NCBI GenBank assembly: GCA_963850835.1
Contig: CAWKNB010000021.1
Span: 8,525 to 72,524, forward strand
Reading direction: 5' to 3'
From: an uncultured Actinomycetota bacterium
GTDB taxonomy: Bacteria > Actinomycetota > Actinomycetes > Mycobacteriales > Jatrophihabitantaceae
Length of the DNA: 64,000 nt
Below, in pieces: positions 33,246 to 54,764 of the stretch (the first letter of the stretch is position 1; each line of letters opens with the position of its first letter). The position numbers were made by a program, and so were the translations under genes. Under the pieces are notes generated by a model. The model was not told where the DNA came from and did no database searches. It saw only the letters and a list, made by a program, of their open reading frames with translations.

Positions 33246-33264
33246 TCTATCGGTATGATAGACA
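33246..33264. promoter_or_regulatory. Palindromic operator copy A (TCTA-N9-TAGACA), overlapping a TATGAT -10
   Basis: TCTATCGGTATGATAGACA, in the divergent region between the carbonic anhydrase and ABC operons. Confidence 0.75.
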
Positions 33265-33270
33265 ATACGA

Positions 33271-33412: not shown

Positions 33413-35011
33413 ATGCAGACATCGCCCGTTCCCGTTCCCACTCGCCGTTCATTCCTGGCCGCAGCCGGTGCCAGCGGCCTGCTCGCGGTCCTGGCCGCGT
33501 GCACCTCCGGCGATCCGAATGCTCCCGAGTCGTCCGGTGCCAGCCAGTCGGCCGCCGGGTCGGCCCGCAAGCGCGGCGGCACCATCAAGGTCGGCATTCC
33601 GGCACCCCCGACCGCGGTGGACCCGGTGACGATGTACGACGGCTCGGCAATCATCATCGTCCAACTCGTTGCCGACTATCTGATCTGGCTCGACAGCGAC
33701 CTGAAGCTCGTGCCCCGCCTTGCGACGAAGTGGACGGCCGAGCAGGGCGGAAAACGCTGGGCGTTCACGCTGCGCTCCGGCGTGTCCTTCTCCGATGGCA
33801 CGCCGCTGACCGCCCAGGCGGTGAAGGCCTCGTTCGACCGGCTCCTCGACCCCAAGAACAAGTCCGCGGCGTTGTCGGCCTTCGATGGCATCCTCGCCAG
33901 TGGCGGGGTGACCATCCGTGACTCGAGGACGGTCGTCTTCACCCTGCAGCGGACTTTCTCCGACTTCCCCTACCTCGTCTCCGCCGGCAACTACAACGCC
34001 GTCATCCTCAAGGCCGATTACGCCGGCGACTTCGCCAAGAAGCCGATCGGGACCGGCCCGTTCCTGCTCGGCAGCTACAGCACATCTGGTGGAGCGACGC
34101 TGACGCGCAACCCGAAGTATTGGCAGTCCGGCAAGCCCTATCTCGACGGCGTGCAGATCCACTTCTATGCCGACAGCCAGGCCCAGACCTTGGCACTGCA
34201 GGGCGGAGCCGTGGACGTCCTGGGCCTCACCCAGATCAACGATGTGCCGACCGGCGGCAATATTGCCATCGACAAGACGCCGGGCACCGGCATCACCACC
34301 TTCACGCTGCGCACGGACAAGGCGCCCTTCGACAAGAAGGAGGTACGGCAGGCCGTCGCATACGCATTGGACCGCCCGGCGATCAACACCGCCACGAACG
34401 ACGGCATCGGCCAGCTCGGCAATGATCACCTGCTGGCGCCGCTGTTCCCGGCCGCGCCGAAGGACATCGCCCAGCGTGCGAAGAACGTGGCGAAGGCGCG
34501 CTCCCTGCTCTCGACGGCCGGGGTCGACAAGCTCGCGTTCACCCTCACCTATGATCCGCCGAGCAAGGACTTCGCCCTCGCCGTCCAGGATCAGCTCAAG
34601 GACGCCGGGATCACCGTCACCCTCGATCAGCAGAGTTCGCAGGCGTTCTACGGCGGCAACCAGACGAAGGACACACCGTGGCTGTTCTCGACGGCTAATC
34701 TGGTGGGTTGGGCCGGGCGCGCCGTACCGAGCCAGTTCGTCGCCCCGATGGTCACCAGCAAGGGGGTGTGGAACGGCTCGAAGTACGCGAACCCGAAGCT
34801 CGACGCGGCGCTCGTCGCCTACGACGCCGCGGCGACGGCTGCCGAGCGGGCGGCGCAGGCCGAGATCATCGCCTCCGCGATGCACGAGGACGTGCCGGTG
34901 ATCATCGCGGTGTGGAACGGCGCAGCCCGTGCCTACGACCGGACCACGTTCGTCGGCGTGCGGGCCCACCCGGAGAGCTTTCTCGACCTGACTGACGTAT
35001 CCCGGGTCTGA
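33413..35011 (+). CDS. ABC transporter substrate-binding protein (family 5, peptide/nickel type), Tat lipoprotein
   Basis: TRRSFL twin-arginine motif, LAAC lipobox, PRLATKW...FTLRSGVSFSDGTPLTA and PIGTGPF. Confidence 0.92.
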   Translation: MQTSPVPVPTRRSFLAAAGASGLLAVLAACTSGDPNAPESSGASQSAAGSARKRGGTIKVGIPAPPTAVDPVTMYDGSAIIIVQLVADYLIWLDSDLKLVPRLATKWTAEQGGKRWAFTLRSGVSFSDGTPLTAQAVKASFDRLLDPKNKSAALSAFDGILASGGVTIRDSRTVVFTLQRTFSDFPYLVSAGNYNAVILKADYAGDFAKKPIGTGPFLLGSYSTSGGATLTRNPKYWQSGKPYLDGVQIHFYADSQAQTLALQGGAVDVLGLTQINDVPTGGNIAIDKTPGTGITTFTLRTDKAPFDKKEVRQAVAYALDRPAINTATNDGIGQLGNDHLLAPLFPAAPKDIAQRAKNVAKARSLLSTAGVDKLAFTLTYDPPSKDFALAVQDQLKDAGITVTLDQQSSQAFYGGNQTKDTPWLFSTANLVGWAGRAVPSQFVAPMVTSKGVWNGSKYANPKLDAALVAYDAAATAAERAAQAEIIASAMHEDVPVIIAVWNGAARAYDRTTFVGVRAHPESFLDLTDVSRV

Positions 35012-35013
35012 CC

Positions 35014-35976
35014 GTGCGTCGGATGCTCGCGCGCCGCCTGCTGACGCTCCCGCTGGTGCTGCTGGCGGTGTCGGCGTTGGTGTTCGTCGCGACGCAGGTG
35101 CTTCCGGGTGACGTCGCACGGGCGGTGCTCGGTCGGGAAGCGTCGGATGAATCGGTGCGCGAGTTGCGCGACCAATTGCACCTCGACGATCCGATCGTCG
35201 CGCAGTATCTGCGCTGGCTGGGTCACTTCGTCACGGGTGACTGGGGCCAGTCGTACACCCTGCGGGTGCCAGTGCGTGAGCTCGTCCTCGATCGACTCGG
35301 CAACAGCATGTTGCTGGCCGGGTTCGCGTTCGTCCTGCTCGTCCCGGTCTCGCTCGGCCTGGGCATCGTCGCCGGCCTCTGGCATGACCGCCCCGTCGAT
35401 CGGGGCATCTCGGTCCTGAGCCTGGTGTTCGGCGCGATCCCCGAGTTCGTGACCGGTGTCGTCCTGTTGCTGGTCTTCGCCGTGCAACTGGGGTGGTTCC
35501 CGGTCTCGGGACAGGTCCTACCTGGCACCGGGCTGGTCGAGCGGCTCTACCACCTCGTGCTGCCCGCAATCACGCTCGTGCTCTTGTGCACCGGTTACGT
35601 CGCGCGCCACGTCCGCGCCAGCACCATCGCGGTCGTGGAGAGTCCGTACGTGCGCGCTTCGGCACTGCGTGGCGTGTCATGGTCGGCGATCGTGCGGCGT
35701 CACGTGTTGCGAAACTCGACGGTCCCGGCGACCAGCGCGCTGGGTGTGCAGGCGCAGTTCCTGCTCGGCGGGCTCGTCGCCGTCGAGTTGCTCTTCGACT
35801 ACCCGGGTATCGGTGCGCTGCTGCTGTCCTCCGCGGTGAACAAGGATCTGCCCACCCTGCAGGCCACGGCGATCGTCCTGGGCTTCATCTACCTGCTGAT
35901 CATGTTGGCCGTCGAGGTCGTGTATCGGCTGTTGGATCCGCGTATCCGTGCTGCAGGCGAGCGGGTGAGCATATGA
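35014..35976 (+). CDS. ABC permease (DppB-like)
   Basis: LPGDVA, QYLRWL...GDWGQS and EAA loop SPYVRASALRG. Confidence 0.92.
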   Translation: MRRMLARRLLTLPLVLLAVSALVFVATQVLPGDVARAVLGREASDESVRELRDQLHLDDPIVAQYLRWLGHFVTGDWGQSYTLRVPVRELVLDRLGNSMLLAGFAFVLLVPVSLGLGIVAGLWHDRPVDRGISVLSLVFGAIPEFVTGVVLLLVFAVQLGWFPVSGQVLPGTGLVERLYHLVLPAITLVLLCTGYVARHVRASTIAVVESPYVRASALRGVSWSAIVRRHVLRNSTVPATSALGVQAQFLLGGLVAVELLFDYPGIGALLLSSAVNKDLPTLQATAIVLGFIYLLIMLAVEVVYRLLDPRIRAAGERVSI

Positions 35977-36836
35977 CCGTCGTGCTCGCGAAGGACACCG
36001 CGCCGACGCTCGAGGACTCGCCGCCCCCGGTCGTCCGGCGGCGCCGCCCGATCGCGCTCGTCATCGGAGTCACGATGATCGGGGTCTGGGTGGTGTCTGC
36101 GATCGCCTGGCCATGGCTCGTCCCGTTCGACCCGGCGCACTTCGACATCACGCACCGGTTCGCCGCCCCGAGTAGGGAGCATCTGCTCGGCACCGATCAG
36201 TTCGGTCGCGACACCTTCTCGCGGCTGCTCGCCGGCGCGCGTCCGGTGCTGGAGGTGGCACCCATCGCCACTGCGGTGTCGGTCGCGTGCGGAACGGCGT
36301 TGGGCCTGCTCGCCGGTGCTTCGGGGGGACGGGTCGACACGGTGATCATGCGAGCACTCGACATCGTGATGGTGTTCCCGGCGATCATCGCAAGCATCCT
36401 GTTCGTGGCTTTACTCGGTCGTTCGACCACAGTGCTCGTGATCGTCATCGGGCTCGCGTTCGTTCCGATCGTCACCCGCAGCGTGCGCGCCGCCACACTC
36501 GTGCAGCGTGAGCTGCCCTACGTCGATGCCGCCCGCCTGCGTGGTGAGCCGCAATGGTCACTGCTGGCTCGCGAGATCCTGCCCAACGTCAACCGCACCG
36601 TGCTCGTCGAGGCGACCTCCCGTCTCGGCGACGCGGTCTTCGCCGCGGCAACGCTGTCGTTCATCGGTCTCGGTCAGCCGCCCGGCTCGCCCGACTGGGG
36701 CGCATCGGTCGCGGACAACCGGTCGTGGTTGCCGATCGCGCCATGGACTGTTCTCGCCCCGGCCCTTGCTATTGCGTCCCTCGTCATCGGCGTGGCGCTC
36801 GTCAGCGACGACCTGCGCTACCGGCTGGACGCCTGA
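35973..36836 (+). CDS. ABC permease (DppC-like)
   Basis: HLLGTDQFGRDTFSRL, YVDAARLRGE and ILPNV; ATGA overlap. Confidence 0.92.
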   Translation: MTVVLAKDTAPTLEDSPPPVVRRRRPIALVIGVTMIGVWVVSAIAWPWLVPFDPAHFDITHRFAAPSREHLLGTDQFGRDTFSRLLAGARPVLEVAPIATAVSVACGTALGLLAGASGGRVDTVIMRALDIVMVFPAIIASILFVALLGRSTTVLVIVIGLAFVPIVTRSVRAATLVQRELPYVDAARLRGEPQWSLLAREILPNVNRTVLVEATSRLGDAVFAAATLSFIGLGQPPGSPDWGASVADNRSWLPIAPWTVLAPALAIASLVIGVALVSDDLRYRLDA

Positions 36837-36837
36837 C

Positions 36838-38610
36838 ATGGACGGGTTGCGCGCACACTCGCTCTCTGTCGATTTCGCGACCCGCCGCGGCCCAGTCCAC
36901 GTGCTGCGATCCGTCGACATCGCCTGCGCACCCGGTCGGATGCTCGGCGTTGTCGGTGAGTCCGGCTCGGGCAAAACCACCCTCGGCCGAGCATTGGGCA
37001 ACGGGCTCGACCCCGGTGCGCGGGTGAGCGGCAAGGTCGAGGTCGACGGCGTGGATGTGCTCGGTCTCTCGGGCCGGGCGCTGCGCGAGTGGCGGGCGTC
37101 CTCGCTCGCCGTCGTCCATCAGGAGGCGGGTGCCTCGCTCGACCCGACGATGCGCATCGGCACGCAGCTCGCCCAGATCCTCGAACTGCACGGCGTGCCG
37201 CGTGCCCGGCGCACCGAACAGGCCGCAGCATTGCTGGATCAGGTACGGCTGCCAACCACTGCGGCCCAGCGCTATCCCTATCAACTGTCCGGCGGTCAAC
37301 AGCAGCGCGTGGTCATCGCGGCCGCCCTGGCCGGCCGGCCCCGGTTGCTCGTTCTCGACGAACCGACCACCGGCCTGGACGCCTCGGTCGAGGCCGGTGT
37401 GCTGGCCCTCATCGAGGAGCTGCGGGTCCAGCTCGACTGCGCTGTCATTCTGATCAGCCACGACCTCGGCCTGGTGGGTCACCTGTGCGACGACGTCACC
37501 GTGCTCCACGCCGGGCGAGTTGTCGAACACGGTGCCGCCGCCGAGGTGCTCACCCGTCCTGACCACCCCTACACGCGCACATTGCTGCAAGCCGTTCCAG
37601 AGCTCGGCGTTCCCCGCAGCCGGCGTCGCCTCACTCCGACGACCGAGGATGGCGAGATCCCGCCAGAACCAGGCGATGCCCTGCTCGAGGTGCGCGACCT
37701 GCGCCGCAGCTACGGGCGACACGTCGCCGTCGACGGCATCGATCTCGACGTGCGGGCCGGTGAGGTGCTCGGCATCGTGGGCGAGTCGGGCAGCGGCAAG
37801 TCCACGCTGGCGCGGGCGATCGTCGGCCTCGGCCCCCGCGGCGGCGGCACCGTTCGCCTCGCCGGCGAGCCGCTGGCCGAGCAGGTGGCGCGTCGTCCGC
37901 GAGAAGTGCTGCGCCGGCTGCAGATGGTCTTCCAGGAGCCCGACGCGACGCTGAACCCGGCGCACACGACCGCTCGGGTGCTGTCCCGCGCGATCCGCAC
38001 GCTCGGCGGCACGCGTTCGGCCGAACAGCTGGCCGAATGGGCGCATCTCGAGCCGGCGCTGCTGCCGGCCCGGACATCGACGCTGTCCGGCGGGCAGAAG
38101 CAACGGGTGGCCATCGCCAGAGCGTTCGCGGGGTCGGCCGACCTGGTGGTGTTGGACGAACCGGTCTCGGCACTGGACGTCAGCGTGCAGGCCCAGATCC
38201 TCGACCTGCTCGCGGACAGCGCAGCCCGCGAGCGCACCGCGTATCTGTTCGTGTCGCACGACCTGGCCGTCATCAGCTACCTCGCGGACCGGGTAGCGGT
38301 GATGTACCGGGGCCAGGTCCTCGAAAGCGGATCGACGACCGACGTCATCGACGGCCCGCACCATCCCTACACCGCCGAGTTGGTCGGCGCGGCCCGACGC
38401 CGGCCGGTGTCTACCGGCACGGGGAAAACGCTCGACCATCGGGCGGATGACCGCGGTTGCCGGTATGCGGACCGCTGCCCGTTGCATCTCGGCGACGTCT
38501 GCGACGAGCAGACGCCGCCACTGCGCGACATCGCGGCGGGGCATGCCGTGCGGTGTCACCTGCCTGTGCCACAACTGCCTGTCAGCTCAACAGAAAGGAG
38601 ATCAGCATGA
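36838..38610 (+). CDS. ABC ATP-binding protein, fused double domain (DppD/F-like)
   Basis: Two Walker A motifs (GESGSGKT, GESGSGKS), two LSGGQ signatures and a C-terminal CRYADRCP...C...C oligopeptide-type tail. Confidence 0.93.
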   Translation: MDGLRAHSLSVDFATRRGPVHVLRSVDIACAPGRMLGVVGESGSGKTTLGRALGNGLDPGARVSGKVEVDGVDVLGLSGRALREWRASSLAVVHQEAGASLDPTMRIGTQLAQILELHGVPRARRTEQAAALLDQVRLPTTAAQRYPYQLSGGQQQRVVIAAALAGRPRLLVLDEPTTGLDASVEAGVLALIEELRVQLDCAVILISHDLGLVGHLCDDVTVLHAGRVVEHGAAAEVLTRPDHPYTRTLLQAVPELGVPRSRRRLTPTTEDGEIPPEPGDALLEVRDLRRSYGRHVAVDGIDLDVRAGEVLGIVGESGSGKSTLARAIVGLGPRGGGTVRLAGEPLAEQVARRPREVLRRLQMVFQEPDATLNPAHTTARVLSRAIRTLGGTRSAEQLAEWAHLEPALLPARTSTLSGGQKQRVAIARAFAGSADLVVLDEPVSALDVSVQAQILDLLADSAARERTAYLFVSHDLAVISYLADRVAVMYRGQVLESGSTTDVIDGPHHPYTAELVGAARRRPVSTGTGKTLDHRADDRGCRYADRCPLHLGDVCDEQTPPLRDIAAGHAVRCHLPVPQLPVSSTERRSA

Positions 38611-39140
38611 CTGCCGCACCTGTCGGCCCGGAGAACGAGTTCGCCGACCTGTCCGGAGAAGTCACCGTGCAACGTCACTGGTTCACCGCCTCCGTCGGCG
38701 GACATGTCAGCGCCGTCGTCTGGGGCACCGGCACACCGCAGTTCGTGGTGCTGCCCGACGACGGTGTGACCGCCCGCGACCTCGACGAACTGGGGGCTCG
38801 CCTGAGCACCCCCGTCGTCCTGGTCGACCGACTCGGCACCGGACGATCGAGCGGTCCCGCACCCTCGACGCCCGCGCGCGAGGCTCGTCCGCTCGCCGAA
38901 GCCGCGTGGTCGTTCGCACCGAAAACCGAAACACTCGTCGGGCTCGGCGGCGGTGGGGCCGCCGCCGCACTCGCCGCAGCCGCGCGAGCCCGCTCGATCA
39001 CCCGCGTCGTGCTCGTCGGAGTCCCGGCGCCTGACAACCCACCACCCGCGCTCGCCGAGCGCGGTATCCAGATCACCACCCATCCCGACACCGACCCAAC
39101 AGCCCCGGCCGCGGTAGCGGCCCTGCTCGCTAGGCAATAG
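38607..39140 (+). CDS. Truncated alpha/beta-hydrolase-fold protein lacking the nucleophile Ser
   Basis: VSAVVWGTGTPQFVVL and VLVDRLGTGRSS. The elbow reads LVGLGGGG. ATGA overlap and SD AAGGAG. Confidence 0.6.
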   Translation: MTAAPVGPENEFADLSGEVTVQRHWFTASVGGHVSAVVWGTGTPQFVVLPDDGVTARDLDELGARLSTPVVLVDRLGTGRSSGPAPSTPAREARPLAEAAWSFAPKTETLVGLGGGGAAAALAAAARARSITRVVLVGVPAPDNPPPALAERGIQITTHPDTDPTAPAAVAALLARQ

Positions 39141-39156
39141 AGAGGAACGGATCACC

Positions 39157-40194
39157 ATGACCACAACCCCTACCGAGAACATCGCCTTGATCGATCTCGG
39201 CCGCGCTCTCGACGGCGACCGCACCGAGCTCGACCGGCTGCGGTTCGCCGGCCAAGACCTCGGCATCATCCAGGTCGTCGATCACGGCGTCGATCAGGCG
39301 CTGATCGAGGAGTTCCACGATCGCATCGCGGCAATCCTGGCCCTGCCTCGCGAGGACAAGATCGAGTTGGCGAGTCCGACCGGGCACCCGTACCGCGGCT
39401 GGCGGCAGTGGCCGGACGATTTCGGTCGACTCGAACTCGAACGGTTCACCTTCGGCAAGTACGACTCGACGGAAGACGCGCGCAACGCGGGTCTCGAGCC
39501 TGAGTACAGCCTGGAGTACGCGCACGCCAACGTCTGGCCGCCGCAGCAGCCGGGCCTGCGGGAGGTCGCGAAGGCCTATCACGCGGCGGCCGATGCACTG
39601 GCACGGCGGGTGCTGGGTGCCTATGCACTCGCGCTCGGGCACGAGCCGTCGGTGTTCCCGGTGGGCGACGGACCGGATCACAGTCGACTGGTCGTGAACA
39701 ACTATCCGACGTGGACCTGGGACGGCTACGACGCGTCGGCGCCGGACGAGCAGAAACTCCTGCTCCTCGAGCACGCCGACGGCAACGTGCTCACCGTGCT
39801 GCACCAACGCGGCGACTACAACGGCTTGCAGGGCCAGCGCGAGGACGGCACCTGGATCACCGTGCCGATCATTCCCGGCGCCCTGCAGGTCTTCTCGGGA
39901 GGCAATCTCGCGCGCTGGACCAACGGCGCGCTGAAGCCGGGCCGGCACCGCGTCGTCGCGGGCGGCAGCGTCACCCGTCTGTCCAGCGGCATGTTCTGGA
40001 GTCCACGCGTCGACACCACCATCGAACCGTTGGCCGCCTTCGTCGGTGACGGCGAGGCGGAGTTCGACCCGGTGGTGATCTGGGACGGCGTCAAGAACGA
40101 CGTCGACGAGTACCTCGCGGTCTTCGGCAGGCCCGAGCAGATCGCGGCCTGGCGCGAAGGCCGCCCGTTCGTCGCCACGTTGGCCGACGCATGA
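39157..40194 (+). CDS. Isopenicillin-N-synthase-family 2OG-Fe(II) oxygenase
   Basis: QVVDHGVD, EHADGNVLTVL (HxD), PGRHRV (distal His) and RLS (RxS). Confidence 0.9.
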   Translation: MTTTPTENIALIDLGRALDGDRTELDRLRFAGQDLGIIQVVDHGVDQALIEEFHDRIAAILALPREDKIELASPTGHPYRGWRQWPDDFGRLELERFTFGKYDSTEDARNAGLEPEYSLEYAHANVWPPQQPGLREVAKAYHAAADALARRVLGAYALALGHEPSVFPVGDGPDHSRLVVNNYPTWTWDGYDASAPDEQKLLLLEHADGNVLTVLHQRGDYNGLQGQREDGTWITVPIIPGALQVFSGGNLARWTNGALKPGRHRVVAGGSVTRLSSGMFWSPRVDTTIEPLAAFVGDGEAEFDPVVIWDGVKNDVDEYLAVFGRPEQIAAWREGRPFVATLADA

Positions 40195-40964
40195 CCCAGA
40201 CTGCCCTGCAGGCGTCACGGCGCCATCCGGTGCCGGCGGGCGTGCTGACCTGGGAGCCGAGCGAGCGTCATGTCCACGGTGACCTCGGCGGCGTCACCGT
40301 CGTCGACTCGTTCCGGCCGGTACTGGTGTGGGAGCCCGATGCACCCGTCCCCCTCTACGCCTTCCCGCAGGAGGACGTTCGCACCGACCTGCTGCGTCCG
40401 AGCGACCGCGCCGGCGACCGTCCCGGCGCGGTCGCGTGGTTCGACCTGTCCGTGGCCGGTGAGCGGCGCGAAGCGATCGCCTGGCGTTACGGCGGGGCCG
40501 GTGAGCTGGACGAGCTGATCGGCTTCGACTGGTTCCGTCGCCGCAGTCCCGGTCTCGACCACTGGTTCGAGGAGGACGAGGAGGTGTTCGTGCACCCGCG
40601 CGACCCGTACAAGCGGGTCGATGCGTTACCGACGAGCCGGCACGTCGTGGTTTCGTCGGGGGGTGAGGTGCTGGCCGAATCGGACAACACGGTTGCGGTA
40701 TTCGAAACTCGCCTGCCGACCCGGTGGTACTTGCCGGTTGAGGACGTTCGCACCGACCGGCTGCACCTGGCGCCGCACACCACCCGTTGCCCGTACAAGG
40801 GCATCGCCGACGCGTTCACCCTGGCCGGCGCCGACGGCAGTGACATCGCATGGCGCTACCGGGACCCGCTCCCGGCCGTCGAGCCCATCCGCGATCGCAT
40901 CGCGTTCTACAGCGAGCAGGTCGACATCCAGGTCCGACCGGCAAAGGACGTGTCCGAGGAATGA
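40191..40964 (+). CDS. DUF427 protein (two domains)
   Basis: HWFEEDEEVFVHPRDPYKRVD, FETRLPTRWY and TRCPYKG; ATGA overlap. Confidence 0.88.
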   Translation: MTQTALQASRRHPVPAGVLTWEPSERHVHGDLGGVTVVDSFRPVLVWEPDAPVPLYAFPQEDVRTDLLRPSDRAGDRPGAVAWFDLSVAGERREAIAWRYGGAGELDELIGFDWFRRRSPGLDHWFEEDEEVFVHPRDPYKRVDALPTSRHVVVSSGGEVLAESDNTVAVFETRLPTRWYLPVEDVRTDRLHLAPHTTRCPYKGIADAFTLAGADGSDIAWRYRDPLPAVEPIRDRIAFYSEQVDIQVRPAKDVSEE

Positions 40965-40992
40965 CGCCACCTCCGCACGTGTTGGTGAGGAC

Positions 40993-41382
40993 ATGACAGC
41001 TACCGCAACCGGTTACCTGCAGCGGCCCGACTACCGCGTCGACCTGCTCCGGCGCCGCAACCGCGTCGTCGTGCGGCAGGGCGACGTGGAGCTCGCCGAC
41101 ACGAGCGCGAGCATCGTCGTCGACGAGCAGGATCACGGGCTCGTCTTCTACATCCCGGTGCAAGATGTGCGCCGCGATCTGTTGGTCGAGACCGACGACG
41201 AGTCGCGGTGCCCGTACAAGGGTGATGCCAGGTATTGGCGTCTCTCGGACGGGCGCGAGCCGGTCGCGTGGGATTACCCCGAGCCCTACGACGAGGTAGC
41301 CCGGCTGCGCGACCACATCGCCTTCTACCAGGACCGGGTCGACGTGCTCGTGGGTGTCGCCACGCCCGCCGTGTCGCGATGA
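40993..41382 (+). CDS. DUF427 protein (single domain)
   Basis: DEQDHGLVFYIP, SRCPYKGDARYW, AWDYPEP and IAFY. SD GAGGA. Confidence 0.88.
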   Translation: MTATATGYLQRPDYRVDLLRRRNRVVVRQGDVELADTSASIVVDEQDHGLVFYIPVQDVRRDLLVETDDESRCPYKGDARYWRLSDGREPVAWDYPEPYDEVARLRDHIAFYQDRVDVLVGVATPAVSR

Positions 41383-41383
41383 G

Positions 41384-41482
41384 TCAGCTGTAGCGCCGCG
41401 CGAGCGTCGCAACGACGTCCGCATCGGAACCGAGCAGCGCCGCGGACACGTAGCCGTGCCACCAGCGGCGAAGCAGCGTCAT
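41384..41482 (-). CDS. Unannotated 32-aa small protein (MTLLRRWWHGYVSAALLGSDADVVATLARRYS)
   Basis: ATG 41482 overlaps the LLM stop (ATGA). It fills the gap almost exactly and has GC3-biased codons. Confidence 0.6.
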   Translation of the reverse strand: MTLLRRWWHGYVSAALLGSDADVVATLARRYS

Positions 41483-42603
41483 CGATGCCGCCATTCGTTC
41501 GCCAGCAGCTCGTAGGAGCGCACGCGGTCGGAGTGGTCATGAGTGATCGTGGTGATCAGGAGCTCGTCGGCCTCGGTCGCGTCGCGTAGGCGCTCGAGCT
41601 GATCGGCGACATGTCGTGCGGACCCGACGAACTGCGTCTGCACCCGGTCTTCGACCAGGGCACGGTCGGCGTCCGTCCAGCGGTGGCGCCGGGCCTGCTC
41701 CGGGGTTGGGAATGCGATCGCGCCCTCGCCCGATCGGATGCTACGCACCCACAGCGGATACCCGGTGGCCAGCTCCTGAGCCGCGCCGTCGTCCTCGGCC
41801 ACCACGACATCGGCAGAGACGATCACATACGGCGCTTCGAGATCGGCCGACGGCCGGAAGGCGGCTCGGTATCCGTCGACCGCCTCGAGCACGGTCGCCG
41901 GGCTGACATGGTAGTTCGCGCCGAAGCGCAGCCCGCGTTCACCGGCAAGCACTGCGCTTTCCCCGCCGCTGCTCCCCAGGATCCACACCTGCAGTCCAGC
42001 ACCCTCGCCGGGGACGACGTGCGCCTCCTGCCCGTCCTTGACGTACCGCCCGGCGAACAGGTCGAGGATGTCACGCACCTGCTCGGTGTAGTTCTGCGGA
42101 TGCGCGTCGGGCTGCGTGAGCAGTGTCTTCTGCAGCACGAAGCGGGGTGAGGACAACAGGGCGGCCGGGGACCACTTCTTCGGAATGCGAAGACCGTTGT
42201 CGGTCCATCCGTCAACGACCCGTTCACGACCGTTGACCACCGCAGGCTCTCTGACCGGTGCCGGTTTGCCGCCGGAACGGCCCAGGCCGAGATCGAGGCG
42301 GCCGGGGTGCAGGGCGTCGATCAACCCGAATTCCTCGACCGTCGACAGGGCGGTGCGGTGACCGAGCTGGACCGCCCCTGACCCGAGCCGGATCTCGGTC
42401 GTCGCCGCGGCGGTGAGTGCCAGCACGACTGCCGGCGAGGTACCGGCGACACCCGGGTTCAGGTGATGTTCGGCGAACCAGTATCGGGTGTAGCCCTGTC
42501 GTTCGCCGTGTTGCGCGAGATCAATGCTGTTTCGCAGCGCTTCGGGCGCTGACGAGCCCGAGGAGATCGGGACGAGGTCGAGAATGCCGAGCGGTGTGTT
42601 CAT
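41479..42603 (-). CDS. LLM-class luciferase-like monooxygenase (CmoO/YhbW-like)
   Basis: ILDLVPI, YWFAEHH, IRLGSGAVQL, GRLDLGLGRS and WILGSSG. Confidence 0.9.
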   Translation of the reverse strand: MNTPLGILDLVPISSGSSAPEALRNSIDLAQHGERQGYTRYWFAEHHLNPGVAGTSPAVVLALTAAATTEIRLGSGAVQLGHRTALSTVEEFGLIDALHPGRLDLGLGRSGGKPAPVREPAVVNGRERVVDGWTDNGLRIPKKWSPAALLSSPRFVLQKTLLTQPDAHPQNYTEQVRDILDLFAGRYVKDGQEAHVVPGEGAGLQVWILGSSGGESAVLAGERGLRFGANYHVSPATVLEAVDGYRAAFRPSADLEAPYVIVSADVVVAEDDGAAQELATGYPLWVRSIRSGEGAIAFPTPEQARRHRWTDADRALVEDRVQTQFVGSARHVADQLERLRDATEADELLITTITHDHSDRVRSYELLANEWRHR

Positions 42604-44034: not shown

Positions 44035-45232
44035 TCATGCGGCGTAACGGTTTGACGGCCGCGGCAACCCGAGCCGACCGCGCAGGGTGTCGGACCCGTA
44101 CGCGGTGCGGAACGCGCCACGGCGTTGCAGCTCGGGGATCAGCGACCGGGTGATCCTCGTCAGGTCATCAGGAATCGCGGCCGGTCGCAGCCGAAATCCG
44201 GACAGGCCGACGTGCTGCCACTCCTGCAGCAGATCGGCCAGCTCGGCCGCGGTGCCGGCGAAGATCAGGGCATCGCTGCGGTATTCCCCGCCCGCCGTGT
44301 CGTCCAGGCGACGCAGCCGAGCGCGTGCGGCCGTCGACGTGTCACCCAGGATCACGACGAGATCGCCCCATACGTGCAGGCGCTGGCCCGACCGACCGGC
44401 GGCAGCTGTCTCCCGGCGGATCTCGGTCACGATGTCGCGGGCACTGTCGGCGTTGTCCGGGGTGACGAACACCAGATCAGCGGATGTGGCGGCCAGCCGG
44501 TAGGGGATCGCCTGGTGCGCCAGGAGGCTCACGATCGGTTGGCCCTGCGGCGGCCGTGGCGTGATCGAGGGCCCGCGGACGCTGAACCTCGGCCCGTCGA
44601 AGTCGATGTAGTGCAACTTGTCGATGTCGATGAACCGGCCGGTGCCGGCGTCGCGGATCTCGGCGTCGTCCTCCCAACTGTCCCAGAGCCGGCGAACGAC
44701 CTCCACCCAGTCGCGGGCCTCGTCGAACAGCTCCTCGATCAAACGCTGCGATCTCGGGCCGGTCGCGTTCGGCGTAGCCGAACCTGGGGATCGTTCGGCG
44801 ACCGAAGTGCGCTGCCTCGTGGGCGCGGGCCGAGACCTGCACGCGGACTCCGGCCCGGCCGCCGCTGACGTAGTCGAGCGTCGCGACCGCCTTGGAGAGG
44901 TGAAACGGCTCGGTGTGCGTGACGACGGCAGTGGGAACCAAGCCGATGTGACGGGTCAACGGAGCCACTCGGTTCGCCACCAGCACCGCGTCCAACCGGC
45001 CGCGCACACGATCGGTCCGCGGCTGGGGGCCGGACCAGTGGCCGGTCTGCAGACCGAGCGAGTCCTCGATGGTGACGATGTCGAGCAGCCCGGCTTCTGC
45101 CTCGCCGACCAGATCCGCCCAGTAACCGGCCGTGAACAACTCATCAGGACGGGCCGCCGGCTCGCGCCACGCGGCCGGGTGCCAGCCGGCGCCGTCCAGC
45201 GCCACAGCCAGATGGAACGGATCGCTAGGCAT
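44035..45232 (-). CDS. LLM-class FMNH2-dependent monooxygenase (DszA-like), frameshift ~44744
   Basis: HLAVALDGAGWHPAAWR, TEPFHLSKAVATLDYVSGGRAG, WDSWEDDAEIRD, PRPPQGQP and TLRGRLGL. Confidence 0.88.
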
Positions 45233-45285
45233 GTGTGGCTCCTCGACGTCGACGCAGCGCTACCGATGCTGCAAGGGAATAGTCT

Positions 45286-45304
45286 TGTCCATTATTCCGC
45301 TAGG
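45286..45304. promoter_or_regulatory. Palindromic operator copy B (reverse: CCTA-N9-TGGACA)
   Basis: TGTCCATTATTCCGCTAGG, in the divergent region between the LLM and FMN reductase genes. Confidence 0.65.
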
Positions 45305-45364
45305 TAACATATGCATTGCTGATTTCCCTTGGTTCATCGACCTGCGGACAGGAGGACGACCGTT

Positions 45365-54660: not shown

Positions 54661-54694
54661 GCCAACCCAACCCAACGCTCATGCACAGATATTC

Positions 54695-54711
54695 CCTACT
54701 TGTCCAGTAGA
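54695..54711. promoter_or_regulatory. Palindromic operator copy D (CCTA-N9-TAGA)
   Basis: CCTACTTGTCCAGTAGA, upstream of the dsbA-like gene. Confidence 0.55.
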
Positions 54712-54764
54712 GATTACGAAGACCGCCGCGTCAACAAGCGAGCAGGCGGTCCACGGGTTATATT

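Follow-up and report, generated by a model that had tools for sequence, protein, structure and literature searches.

What does a peptide-type importer carry into the cell when its genes run directly into those of an oxygenase, a hydrolase-like protein without a catalytic nucleophile and two DUF427 proteins? This arrangement occupies positions 33413-41382 of a 64,000-nucleotide (nt) stretch of DNA, here called the window, from an uncultured Actinomycetota bacterium of the family Jatrophihabitantaceae (assembly GCA_963850835.1, contig CAWKNB010000021.1). A first-pass annotation, made from the sequence alone, described it as an operon of eight co-directional genes behind an operator and a Cys-Cys upstream open reading frame (uORF), and took it for a catabolic module. 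The operon is a real, sulfur-regulated and uncharacterised pathway, for which we infer the reaction, the cargo and the roles of the DUF427 and hydrolase-like proteins. Its role is probably to obtain sulfur from an organic compound that it imports, by a route not described before.

The eight-gene operon and its conservation

Open reading frames (ORFs), Pfam and NCBIfam matches and intergenic junctions of -4 to +28 nt bear out the eight co-directional genes, all on the forward strand. The first (33413-35011) encodes a cluster C substrate-binding protein (SBP) of 532 amino acids (aa), predicted to be a lipoprotein exported by the twin-arginine translocation (Tat) route. It matches SBP_bac_5 (3e-77), and its N-terminus carries a TRRSFL twin-arginine motif (TIGR01409, 18.5 bits vs a cut-off of 16.7) and a LAAC lipobox. 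An OppB/NikB-type permease (PermB, 35014-35976, 320 aa) and an OppC/NikC-type permease (PermC, 35973-36836, 287 aa) follow, the start of the latter overlapping the PermB stop in ATGA; both are BPD_transp_1 proteins with OppB/OppC-type N-termini in Pfam and NCBIfam. The fourth gene encodes a fused double ATPase of the OppD/OppF type (36838-38610, 590 aa) with two ABC_tran domains and oligo_HPY. With a cluster C SBP, two permeases and oligo_HPY-tailed ATPases, the importer is classified by sequence as PepT-type (Opp/Dpp/Nik). Downstream lie the genes for Hyd (38607-39140, 177 aa), a truncated alpha/beta-hydrolase-fold protein translationally coupled to the ATPase gene; for Oxy (39157-40194, 345 aa), an Fe(II)/2-oxoglutarate (2OG) oxygenase of the DIOX_N, isopenicillin N synthase (IPNS) and ethylene-forming enzyme (EFE) family; and for a two-domain and a one-domain DUF427 protein (DUF427x2, 40191-40964, 257 aa, PF04248; single DUF427, 40993-41382, 129 aa, with CPYKG and a YW motif). 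In gene order the junctions measure +2, -4, +1, -4, +16, -4 and +28 nt. A simple scan found no promoter-like sites inside the operon, and its terminator-like sites were no more frequent than in shuffled sequence. The eight genes form one tightly packed unit that is predicted to be co-transcribed. As first annotated, none of them holds a peptidase or nonribosomal peptide synthetase (NRPS) domain in Pfam or NCBIfam.

The arrangement is conserved well beyond the window. We collected 80 genomic loci of the oxygenase, 64 of which had flanks sufficient to judge synteny, and divided these by oxygenase identity to the window's protein, counting ABC genes at 45% identity or more. Where the oxygenase was at least 56.5% identical (n = 40), Hyd was adjacent in 34/40 loci, DUF427 in 32/40, and all four ABC genes were present in 29/40. 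Below 56.5% (n = 24), Hyd and the full ABC set were each found in 0/24 loci and DUF427 in 1/24, and this stand-alone oxygenase clade had no conserved neighbours of any kind. A seven-gene core of SBP, two permeases, fused ATPase, Hyd, oxygenase and DUF427 keeps its synteny, at 50-80% identity, across ten or more actinobacterial genera. Among the organisms that carry it are Kutzneria, Sphaerisporangium, Streptosporangium, Planotetraspora, Nonomuraea, Acrocarpospora, Microbispora, Streptacidiphilus, Streptomyces, Actinoplanes, Dactylosporangium, Frankia and a metagenome-assembled genome (MAG) of Jatrophihabitantaceae, the last of which is the window's closest relative (80% identity). The triad genes run in the order Hyd-Oxy-DUF427 or Hyd-DUF427-Oxy. 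In Trebonia-type loci the triad is intact, but the importer genes lie on the opposite strand and are more distant paralogues. From this pattern of synteny we conclude that Hyd, Oxy and DUF427 are a conserved functional core that is usually coupled to this importer. The adjacency counts strongly support the idea of a functional module rather than a chance juxtaposition. We found no paper on the combination of importer, oxygenase, Hyd and DUF427 in the open-access literature searched, which agrees with the annotation's remark that it was not recognised from characterised pathways. One further arrangement was seen in S. avermitilis (L001 / L002), where the SBP and both permeases are lost, ATPase-Hyd-Oxy-DUF427 is kept and the ATPase is called as two ORFs in one assembly; this cluster may be a decaying copy, or its ATPase may have a transporter-independent role.

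A cysteine leader and a sulfur-related setting

Upstream of the SBP gene lies a leader ORF of 26 codons on the forward strand (33271, GTG, to 33351, TGA) that ends in GPCCPTS, with cysteine at codons 22-23, and stops 61 nt before the SBP start. Both this uORF and a palindrome upstream of it (33246-33262) are present. The leader is a positional homologue of that in the closest relative (L003), with which its start codon, frame and Cys-Pro position align. In 14 orthologous loci, from Streptomyces, Streptacidiphilus, Frankia and Jatrophihabitantaceae, the SBP gene is preceded at a distance of 200-400 nt by a leader of a family that reads RRxHVDLxRV and then C-x-C, CC or a single C. In mycobacteria, experiments have shown cysteine-responsive attenuation of operons by leaderless polycysteine small ORFs (sORFs; bioRxiv 10.1101/834739). 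With its consecutive Cys codons upstream of cysteine-related genes, the window leader is such an sORF by sequence, and by analogy it is probably a leaderless Cys-Cys sensor. Consistent with this idea, the spacing of the GACAAT / TATCAAT boxes is compatible with a transcript that starts at the leader start codon, and the Streptomyces leaders begin 5 nt after their TATCAAT box. Like the attenuators of the mycobacterial 'Cys ribulon', it is a short ORF, predicted to come first in the transcript, with consecutive Cys codons near its end. Unlike them, it has only two Cys codons and belongs to the distinct RRxHVDLxRV..CxC family, and no stable sequestering structure was found for it in the window. 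A switch that sequesters the Shine-Dalgarno sequence is not supported for the window leader, whose RNA folds no better than shuffled sequence. An Rfam scan of the whole 64-kb window returned no riboswitch or other RNA family.

The palindrome, TCTATC-N5-GATAGA, is a perfect 6-5-6 repeat that is unique in the window, with 0 occurrences expected by chance. It overlaps an ATAGACAA element, and the combined element (33246-33265, forward strand) is conserved in L003. The pattern WTAGACAW occurs in the 64 kb only at 33258, 48718 and 54777 (0.69 expected), each time in a sulfur-gene promoter region: that of the operon described here, that of the tauABC leader and that of an operon at 54.8 kb. These positions suggest that the palindrome and its ATAGACA element are a probable operator and -10 region common to the window's sulfur promoters. 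Other repeats were also observed. AT-rich inverted-repeat islands at 45266-45341 and 54685-54723 (GGAATAGTCTTGTCCATTATTCC; CTACTTGTCCAGTAG) stand before a flavin-reductase gene and upstream of the 54.8-kb operon, respectively, and are probably operators of the same regulon. In six Streptomyces loci (L035, L038, L042, L047, L050 and L082), a GTTTC-N9-GAAAC palindrome lies ~60 nt upstream of the leader ORF and precedes its TTGTC(T/C) / TATCAAT promoter; it differs from the window's ATAGACA element and is a candidate operator for a sulfur regulator.

The encoded proteins are themselves poor in sulfur. Cysteine and methionine together make up 0% of Hyd, 0.29% of Oxy, 0.39% of DUF427x2 and 0.75% of the SBP, compared to a genome median of 2.3%, which places all four in the 1st-5th percentile of 2505 genome ORFs. 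Beyond the initiator, Hyd lacks both residues; Oxy contains no Cys and a single Met, DUF427x2 nothing but its invariant Cys, and the only sulfur residues of the SBP are its lipobox Cys and three Met. The surrounding genes point the same way. The window holds an alkylsulfatase, luciferase-like monooxygenases (LLMs) of the MsnO8 and NtaA/DmoA types, a flavin reductase and a tauABC/TauD set that lies 7 kb downstream of the operon. The S. avermitilis copy adjoins TauD, a sulfonate-type (ssu-like) ABC system and an LLM; the Kutzneria copy has three LLMs and an FMN reductase nearby; and the Trebonia copy lies near a family-2A encapsulin with SufS cargo, cysK and cysE. Collectively, the Cys leader in 14 loci, the Cys/Met-poor proteins, the sulfur-gene neighbours and the ATAGACA element strongly support the assignment of the operon to sulfur metabolism, and its upstream sequence suggests that it is apparently switched on when cysteine runs short.

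Two of the neighbouring genes have features of their own. The convergent MsnO8-family LLM (41479-42603, reverse strand) has no Cys or Met after its initiator and may act in the same pathway as the operon; LLM relatives occur near the triad in other genera (L014, L052, L029, L041, L043, L062 and L081). The NtaA/DmoA-family FMN monooxygenase (44035-45232, reverse strand) appears split over two overlapping frames, with ORF 44477-45232 covering model positions 2-140 and ORF 44035-44742 positions 146-290; a frameshift, a pseudogene or an assembly error are possible explanations.

Oxygenase, hydrolase-like and DUF427 proteins

Oxy carries H206-A-D208, H264 and R274-L-S276 together with NNYP, and the HxD...H and RxS motifs are therefore intact, as first annotated. 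It matches DIOX_N and 2OG-FeII_Oxy in Pfam (5.9e-15 and 3.3e-11); with the facial triad, RxS and a double-stranded beta-helix preceded by DIOX_N, its sequence assigns it to this class. Among solved structures it is closest to an ethylene/succinate-forming enzyme (9ovh, 2e-19); IPNS (1bk0) scored ~6e-10, and no NCBIfam model matched. With only these distant scores, Oxy falls inside the superfamily and in no characterised family. It shares with EFE and IPNS the two-domain fold, the HxD...H triad and RxS, and differs from them in belonging to a separate, Actinomycetota-confined orthologous group (several hundred sequences, nearly all actinobacterial) with no NCBIfam match. We rejected its identification as an isopenicillin N synthase proper on the basis of the score to 1bk0 and the lack of an NRPS in the operon.

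Hyd has no Pfam match and only a weak match (8e-6) to the M. tuberculosis esterase Rv0045c. An AlphaFold2 (AF2) model built from an alignment of 31 orthologues had a predicted local distance difference test score (pLDDT) of 91, and Foldseek returned 994 matches to it at E<=0.001. The best 50 all had the alpha/beta-hydrolase fold, and its neighbours were esterases, epoxide hydrolases and haloalkane dehalogenases. The matches covered ~125/177 Hyd residues but ~35-40% of the target proteins; on this model, Hyd is a bare alpha/beta core without the cap and the last strands. Its nucleophile elbow reads G-L-G-G-G in the window and G-x-G-x-G in 31/31 orthologues, with an invariant Gly at the nucleophile, and most of the 31 have also lost the triad His. 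In the window the whole C-terminal third is missing, and nucleophile, acid and His are all absent. The 'dead hydrolase' of the first-pass annotation is an apt description: a catalytic alpha/beta-hydrolase was rejected, as there is no Ser, Cys or Asp in the G-x-Nu-x-G elbow.

Ser-bearing relatives of this protein exist. A profile search of 1.84 billion representatives found 319 Hyd relatives at 1e-30; among the best 150, the nucleophile position is Gly in 37 and Ser in 111 (GMSLG and similar). The best-scoring Ser-bearing relative, P0132, has an oxyanion-hole HG motif, a GFSLG elbow, a His-containing C-terminal motif and the Hyd-family cap motif DG.W.WRHH. Its locus, a metagenomic variant (L099:4226-5868), encodes an oxygenase homologue (47%) downstream of the hydrolase and a divergent SBP-permease-permease-ATPase set that is 53-57% identical to the window's. 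The contexts of three other Ser-bearing relatives (P0135, P0136 and P0138) were unrelated or uninformative. The presence of Ser-retaining P0132 in a variant of the same system argues that the Hyd family descends from an active serine hydrolase there, and by sequence the actinobacterial operon clade retains a nucleophile-less Hyd. Hyd is truncated further in the window (177 aa) and in its closest relative L003 (196 aa); lengths elsewhere range from ~210 aa, without a cap, to ~340 aa.

The DUF427 domains were identified by Pfam (1.4e-36 and 2e-25). Foldseek with the DUF427x2 model (pLDDT 86) found the DUF427 protein RSPH17029_0682 (3djm; template modelling (TM) score 0.86 per domain) and then yippee/Mis18 and cereblon. 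These matches agree with the published assignment of DUF427 to the beta-tent fold, which it shares with MsrB and the glutathione-dependent GFA (PMC4287342). The C-terminal domain resembles 3djm in fold (TM 0.86) and in its C-P-x-K-G motif; unlike 3djm, the window domain is tandem-duplicated and encoded inside a transporter-oxygenase operon. Across 30 orthologues, 44 columns of DUF427x2 are invariant, including C200-P-Y-K-G. This motif is found in the C-terminal domain only, the N-terminal copy being degenerate, and C200 is the sole cysteine of the protein. The nearly invariant Y-W-S after CPYKG has become A-F-T in the window's DUF427x2; the single-domain protein keeps Y-W. In the closest relative, four DUF427 domains occupy one uninterrupted 607-codon frame (L003:7520-9340) that opens with a proline-rich APPDL(S/T) repeat.

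DUF427 is present in ~60% of sampled Actinomycetes genomes, and we know of no member with an assigned function; our literature search found only the beta-tent fold paper and a co-occurrence table for NHISS. In the ESM Atlas, DUF427 is fused to adenylate cyclase, acyl-CoA thioesterase and zf-UBP domains, fusions that suit the binding of a small molecule no less well than catalysis. The genome's other DUF427 paralogues (contigs C13 and C14) have no oxygenase, hydrolase-like or ABC homologue nearby; a single LLM relative adjoins the C14 paralogue.

Cargo, pathway and significance

The closest solved relatives of the SBP are a peptide binder, the agropinic-acid binder AgaA, HbpA, GsiB, CtaP and NikA (1e-41 to 1e-22), and all curated substrate-specific NCBIfam models score it far below cut-off. 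The transporter resembles GsiABCD and DppABCDF in architecture and family, with GsiB and HbpA among the nearest solved SBPs; it differs in that the ATPases are fused and the SBP lies far below the GsiB, DppA, OppA and NikA cut-offs. We regard it as moderately likely that the operon belongs to a cysteine-limitation regulon, takes up a peptide-like or amino-acid-derived organosulfur compound from outside the cell and releases the sulfur from it by oxidation. That the cargo is a sulfur-containing conjugate or peptide oxidised by Oxy, as the first-pass annotation proposed, is plausible.

Scarce Cys-tRNA would stall ribosomes at the two Cys codons of the leader and so relieve attenuation, and a repressor at the palindromic ATAGACA operator would add transcriptional control. 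The Tat-exported lipoprotein would capture the substrate, and the permeases and ATPase would import it. Oxy would then oxidise the sulfur or the adjacent carbon, following the logic of TauD, and render the C-S bond labile. The DUF427 beta-tent proteins, with the CPYKG cysteine as the sole one, may bind or process the oxidised sulfur species. Hyd would be a non-catalytic partner that binds the substrate or another protein, and its ancestor may have been a genuine serine hydrolase whose task was to take off a blocking group. Conversion to sulfite may be completed by the FMNH2-dependent monooxygenases and flavin reductase encoded next to the operon.

Several observations weigh against this organosulfur pathway. 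The sequencing runs that hold the window sequence are soil and rhizosphere DNA only, with no RNA. The leader is absent from the Streptosporangiaceae, Micromonosporaceae and Kutzneria copies; the window's own has lost the RRxHVDL part and retains Cys-Cys-Pro, and its RNA has a minimum free energy of -52.1 kcal/mol vs -58.5 for shuffles (z = +1.47). Because the stand-alone oxygenase clade has no such context, Oxy is not bound to the system by nature. Hyd, truncated in the window, may simply be decaying, and to our knowledge no DUF427 protein has a catalytic role. Finally, the best curated matches of the transporter are of nickel and dipeptide types, with the SBP far below cut-off, and what is imported could be a compound without sulfur that the cell requires during sulfur stress.

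These nickel-type matches raise the question of whether the system takes up nickel, cobalt or an opine-type metallophore and the downstream genes are unrelated passengers. For the SBP and permeases, the best NCBIfam rows are indeed nickel-type (Opp5A_nikA 4e-45, Opp2B 1e-74, Opp2C 6e-64). Summing its two halves lifts the fused ATPase above the NikD and NikE cut-offs, and AgaA is among the PDB matches of the SBP. However, the SBP and permeases fall far short of the curated cut-offs, the ATPase does equally well on dipeptide models, and neither the Cys leader, the sulfur-poor proteins, the scavenging neighbours nor the strict Hyd-Oxy-DUF427 synteny is expected of a nickel system. We therefore rejected a nickel importer as the main explanation and consider metal uptake very improbable. 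Another account specifies the cargo as a thiol peptide or S-conjugate, such as glutathione, gamma-Glu-Cys, Cys-Gly, a mycothiol-derived mercapturate or an S-alkyl-cysteine peptide. Oxy would hydroxylate the carbon beside the sulfur, resulting in thioether dealkylation, and DUF427 would handle the aldehyde or thiol. The beta-tent fold common to DUF427, MsrB and GFA (PMC4287342) and the yippee and cereblon matches would suit this chemistry. Two of the solved SBP relatives, HbpA (3m8u) and GsiB/YliB (1uqw), bind glutathione, and a third, CtaP (5isu), is associated with cysteine. EFE, the closest solved relative of Oxy (9ovh, 2e-19), has a side reaction that hydroxylates the carbon of L-arginine beside a heteroatom. 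Identity to those SBPs is low, however, with the GsiB model at 101 bits vs a cut-off of 594; the operon encodes no gamma-glutamyl transferase or peptidase; and no result distinguishes this cargo class from others. We judge this version unlikely.

Alternatively, the cargo could be ergothioneine or a 2-thiohistidine peptide. A hydrolase, at least ancestrally, would remove the partner residue, oxidation of the thione by Oxy would release sulfite or sulfide, and the thioimidazole would be handled by DUF427. DUF427 (COG2343) is the ninth commonest neighbour of EgtB-type sulfoxide synthases (5.7% vs 6.2% for EgtE), and actinomycetes are reported to make 2-thiohistidine dipeptides (PMC13674229, including its Table 1). 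The importer is of the di/oligopeptide class, and Trebonia-type loci carry beside the triad a relative of histidine ammonia-lyase (HAL) in which the triad that forms the methylidene-imidazolone (MIO) group is G-T-G, not A-S-G. Ergothionase is an MIO-less member of the HAL fold. The relative lies at L083:6680-8149 (reverse strand) and also in L080 and L031 (Trebonia and Streptosporangiaceae MAGs), and scores 296 bits vs a HutH cut-off of 524. Yet its match to true HALs (3e-49) is better than that to ergothionase 6s7j (3e-26), it is confined to one clade, and no HAL-like gene lies near the operon in the window's genome. Among 121 Actinomycetes genomes, DUF427 and egtD lay within 5 kb of each other in 0 and within 10 kb in 2 (G056 and G082); the tally includes the unpublished genomes G006, G029, G031, G035 and G042, none of them among the positives. 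In the window organism, egtB and egtD lie on a different contig and have no DUF427 neighbour. The ergothioneine importers known so far are of the OpuC rather than the Opp type, and the annotated neighbourhoods hold no other known ergothioneine-catabolic enzyme. A pathway by the ergothionase route, with ergothionase, thiourocanate hydratase and a desulfhydrase, was rejected; only the MIO-less HAL relative of Trebonia-type loci was seen. Owing to the weak egtD adjacency, the HAL-like character of the lyase and the window's egtB/egtD without DUF427, we think this cargo quite unlikely. The same doubt attaches to an undescribed 2-thioimidazole sulfur salvage with Opp-type import, oxidative thione desulfurisation by an IPNS-family oxygenase and DUF427 as the missing handling protein; if true, it would also explain the recurrence of DUF427 in ergothioneine biosynthetic loci.

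The organosulfur pathway that we favour is closest in logic to tauABCD and ssuEADCB of E. coli and Pseudomonas. These systems likewise combine an ABC importer with an oxygenase that labilises the C-S bond, consist of sulfur-poor proteins and are expressed only under sulfur or cysteine limitation, as the sequence suggests for the window operon. In contrast, the importer here is of the Opp/Dpp/Nik class rather than NMT1/OpuAC, the oxygenase is of the DIOX_N/IPNS family rather than TauD or LLM, and neither system has an equivalent of the nucleophile-less alpha/beta protein or of DUF427. What is known of sulfur scavenging by soil actinomycetes, Frankia and Streptomyces among them, comes mainly from systems for sulfonates and sulfate esters; the operon would bring in a new class of substrate and a new trio of enzymes. 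It would give DUF427 its first regulated, testable physiological context and offer a clear example of a serine hydrolase that has become a conserved protein without catalytic function. The leader would extend cysteine-sensing peptides from mycobacteria to Streptomyces, Frankia and their relatives, where its motif could be used to map the 'Cys regulon'. The operon would thus follow the logic of tauABCD and ssu with other parts, and would be categorically new if DUF427 proves to be a new type of sulfur enzyme.

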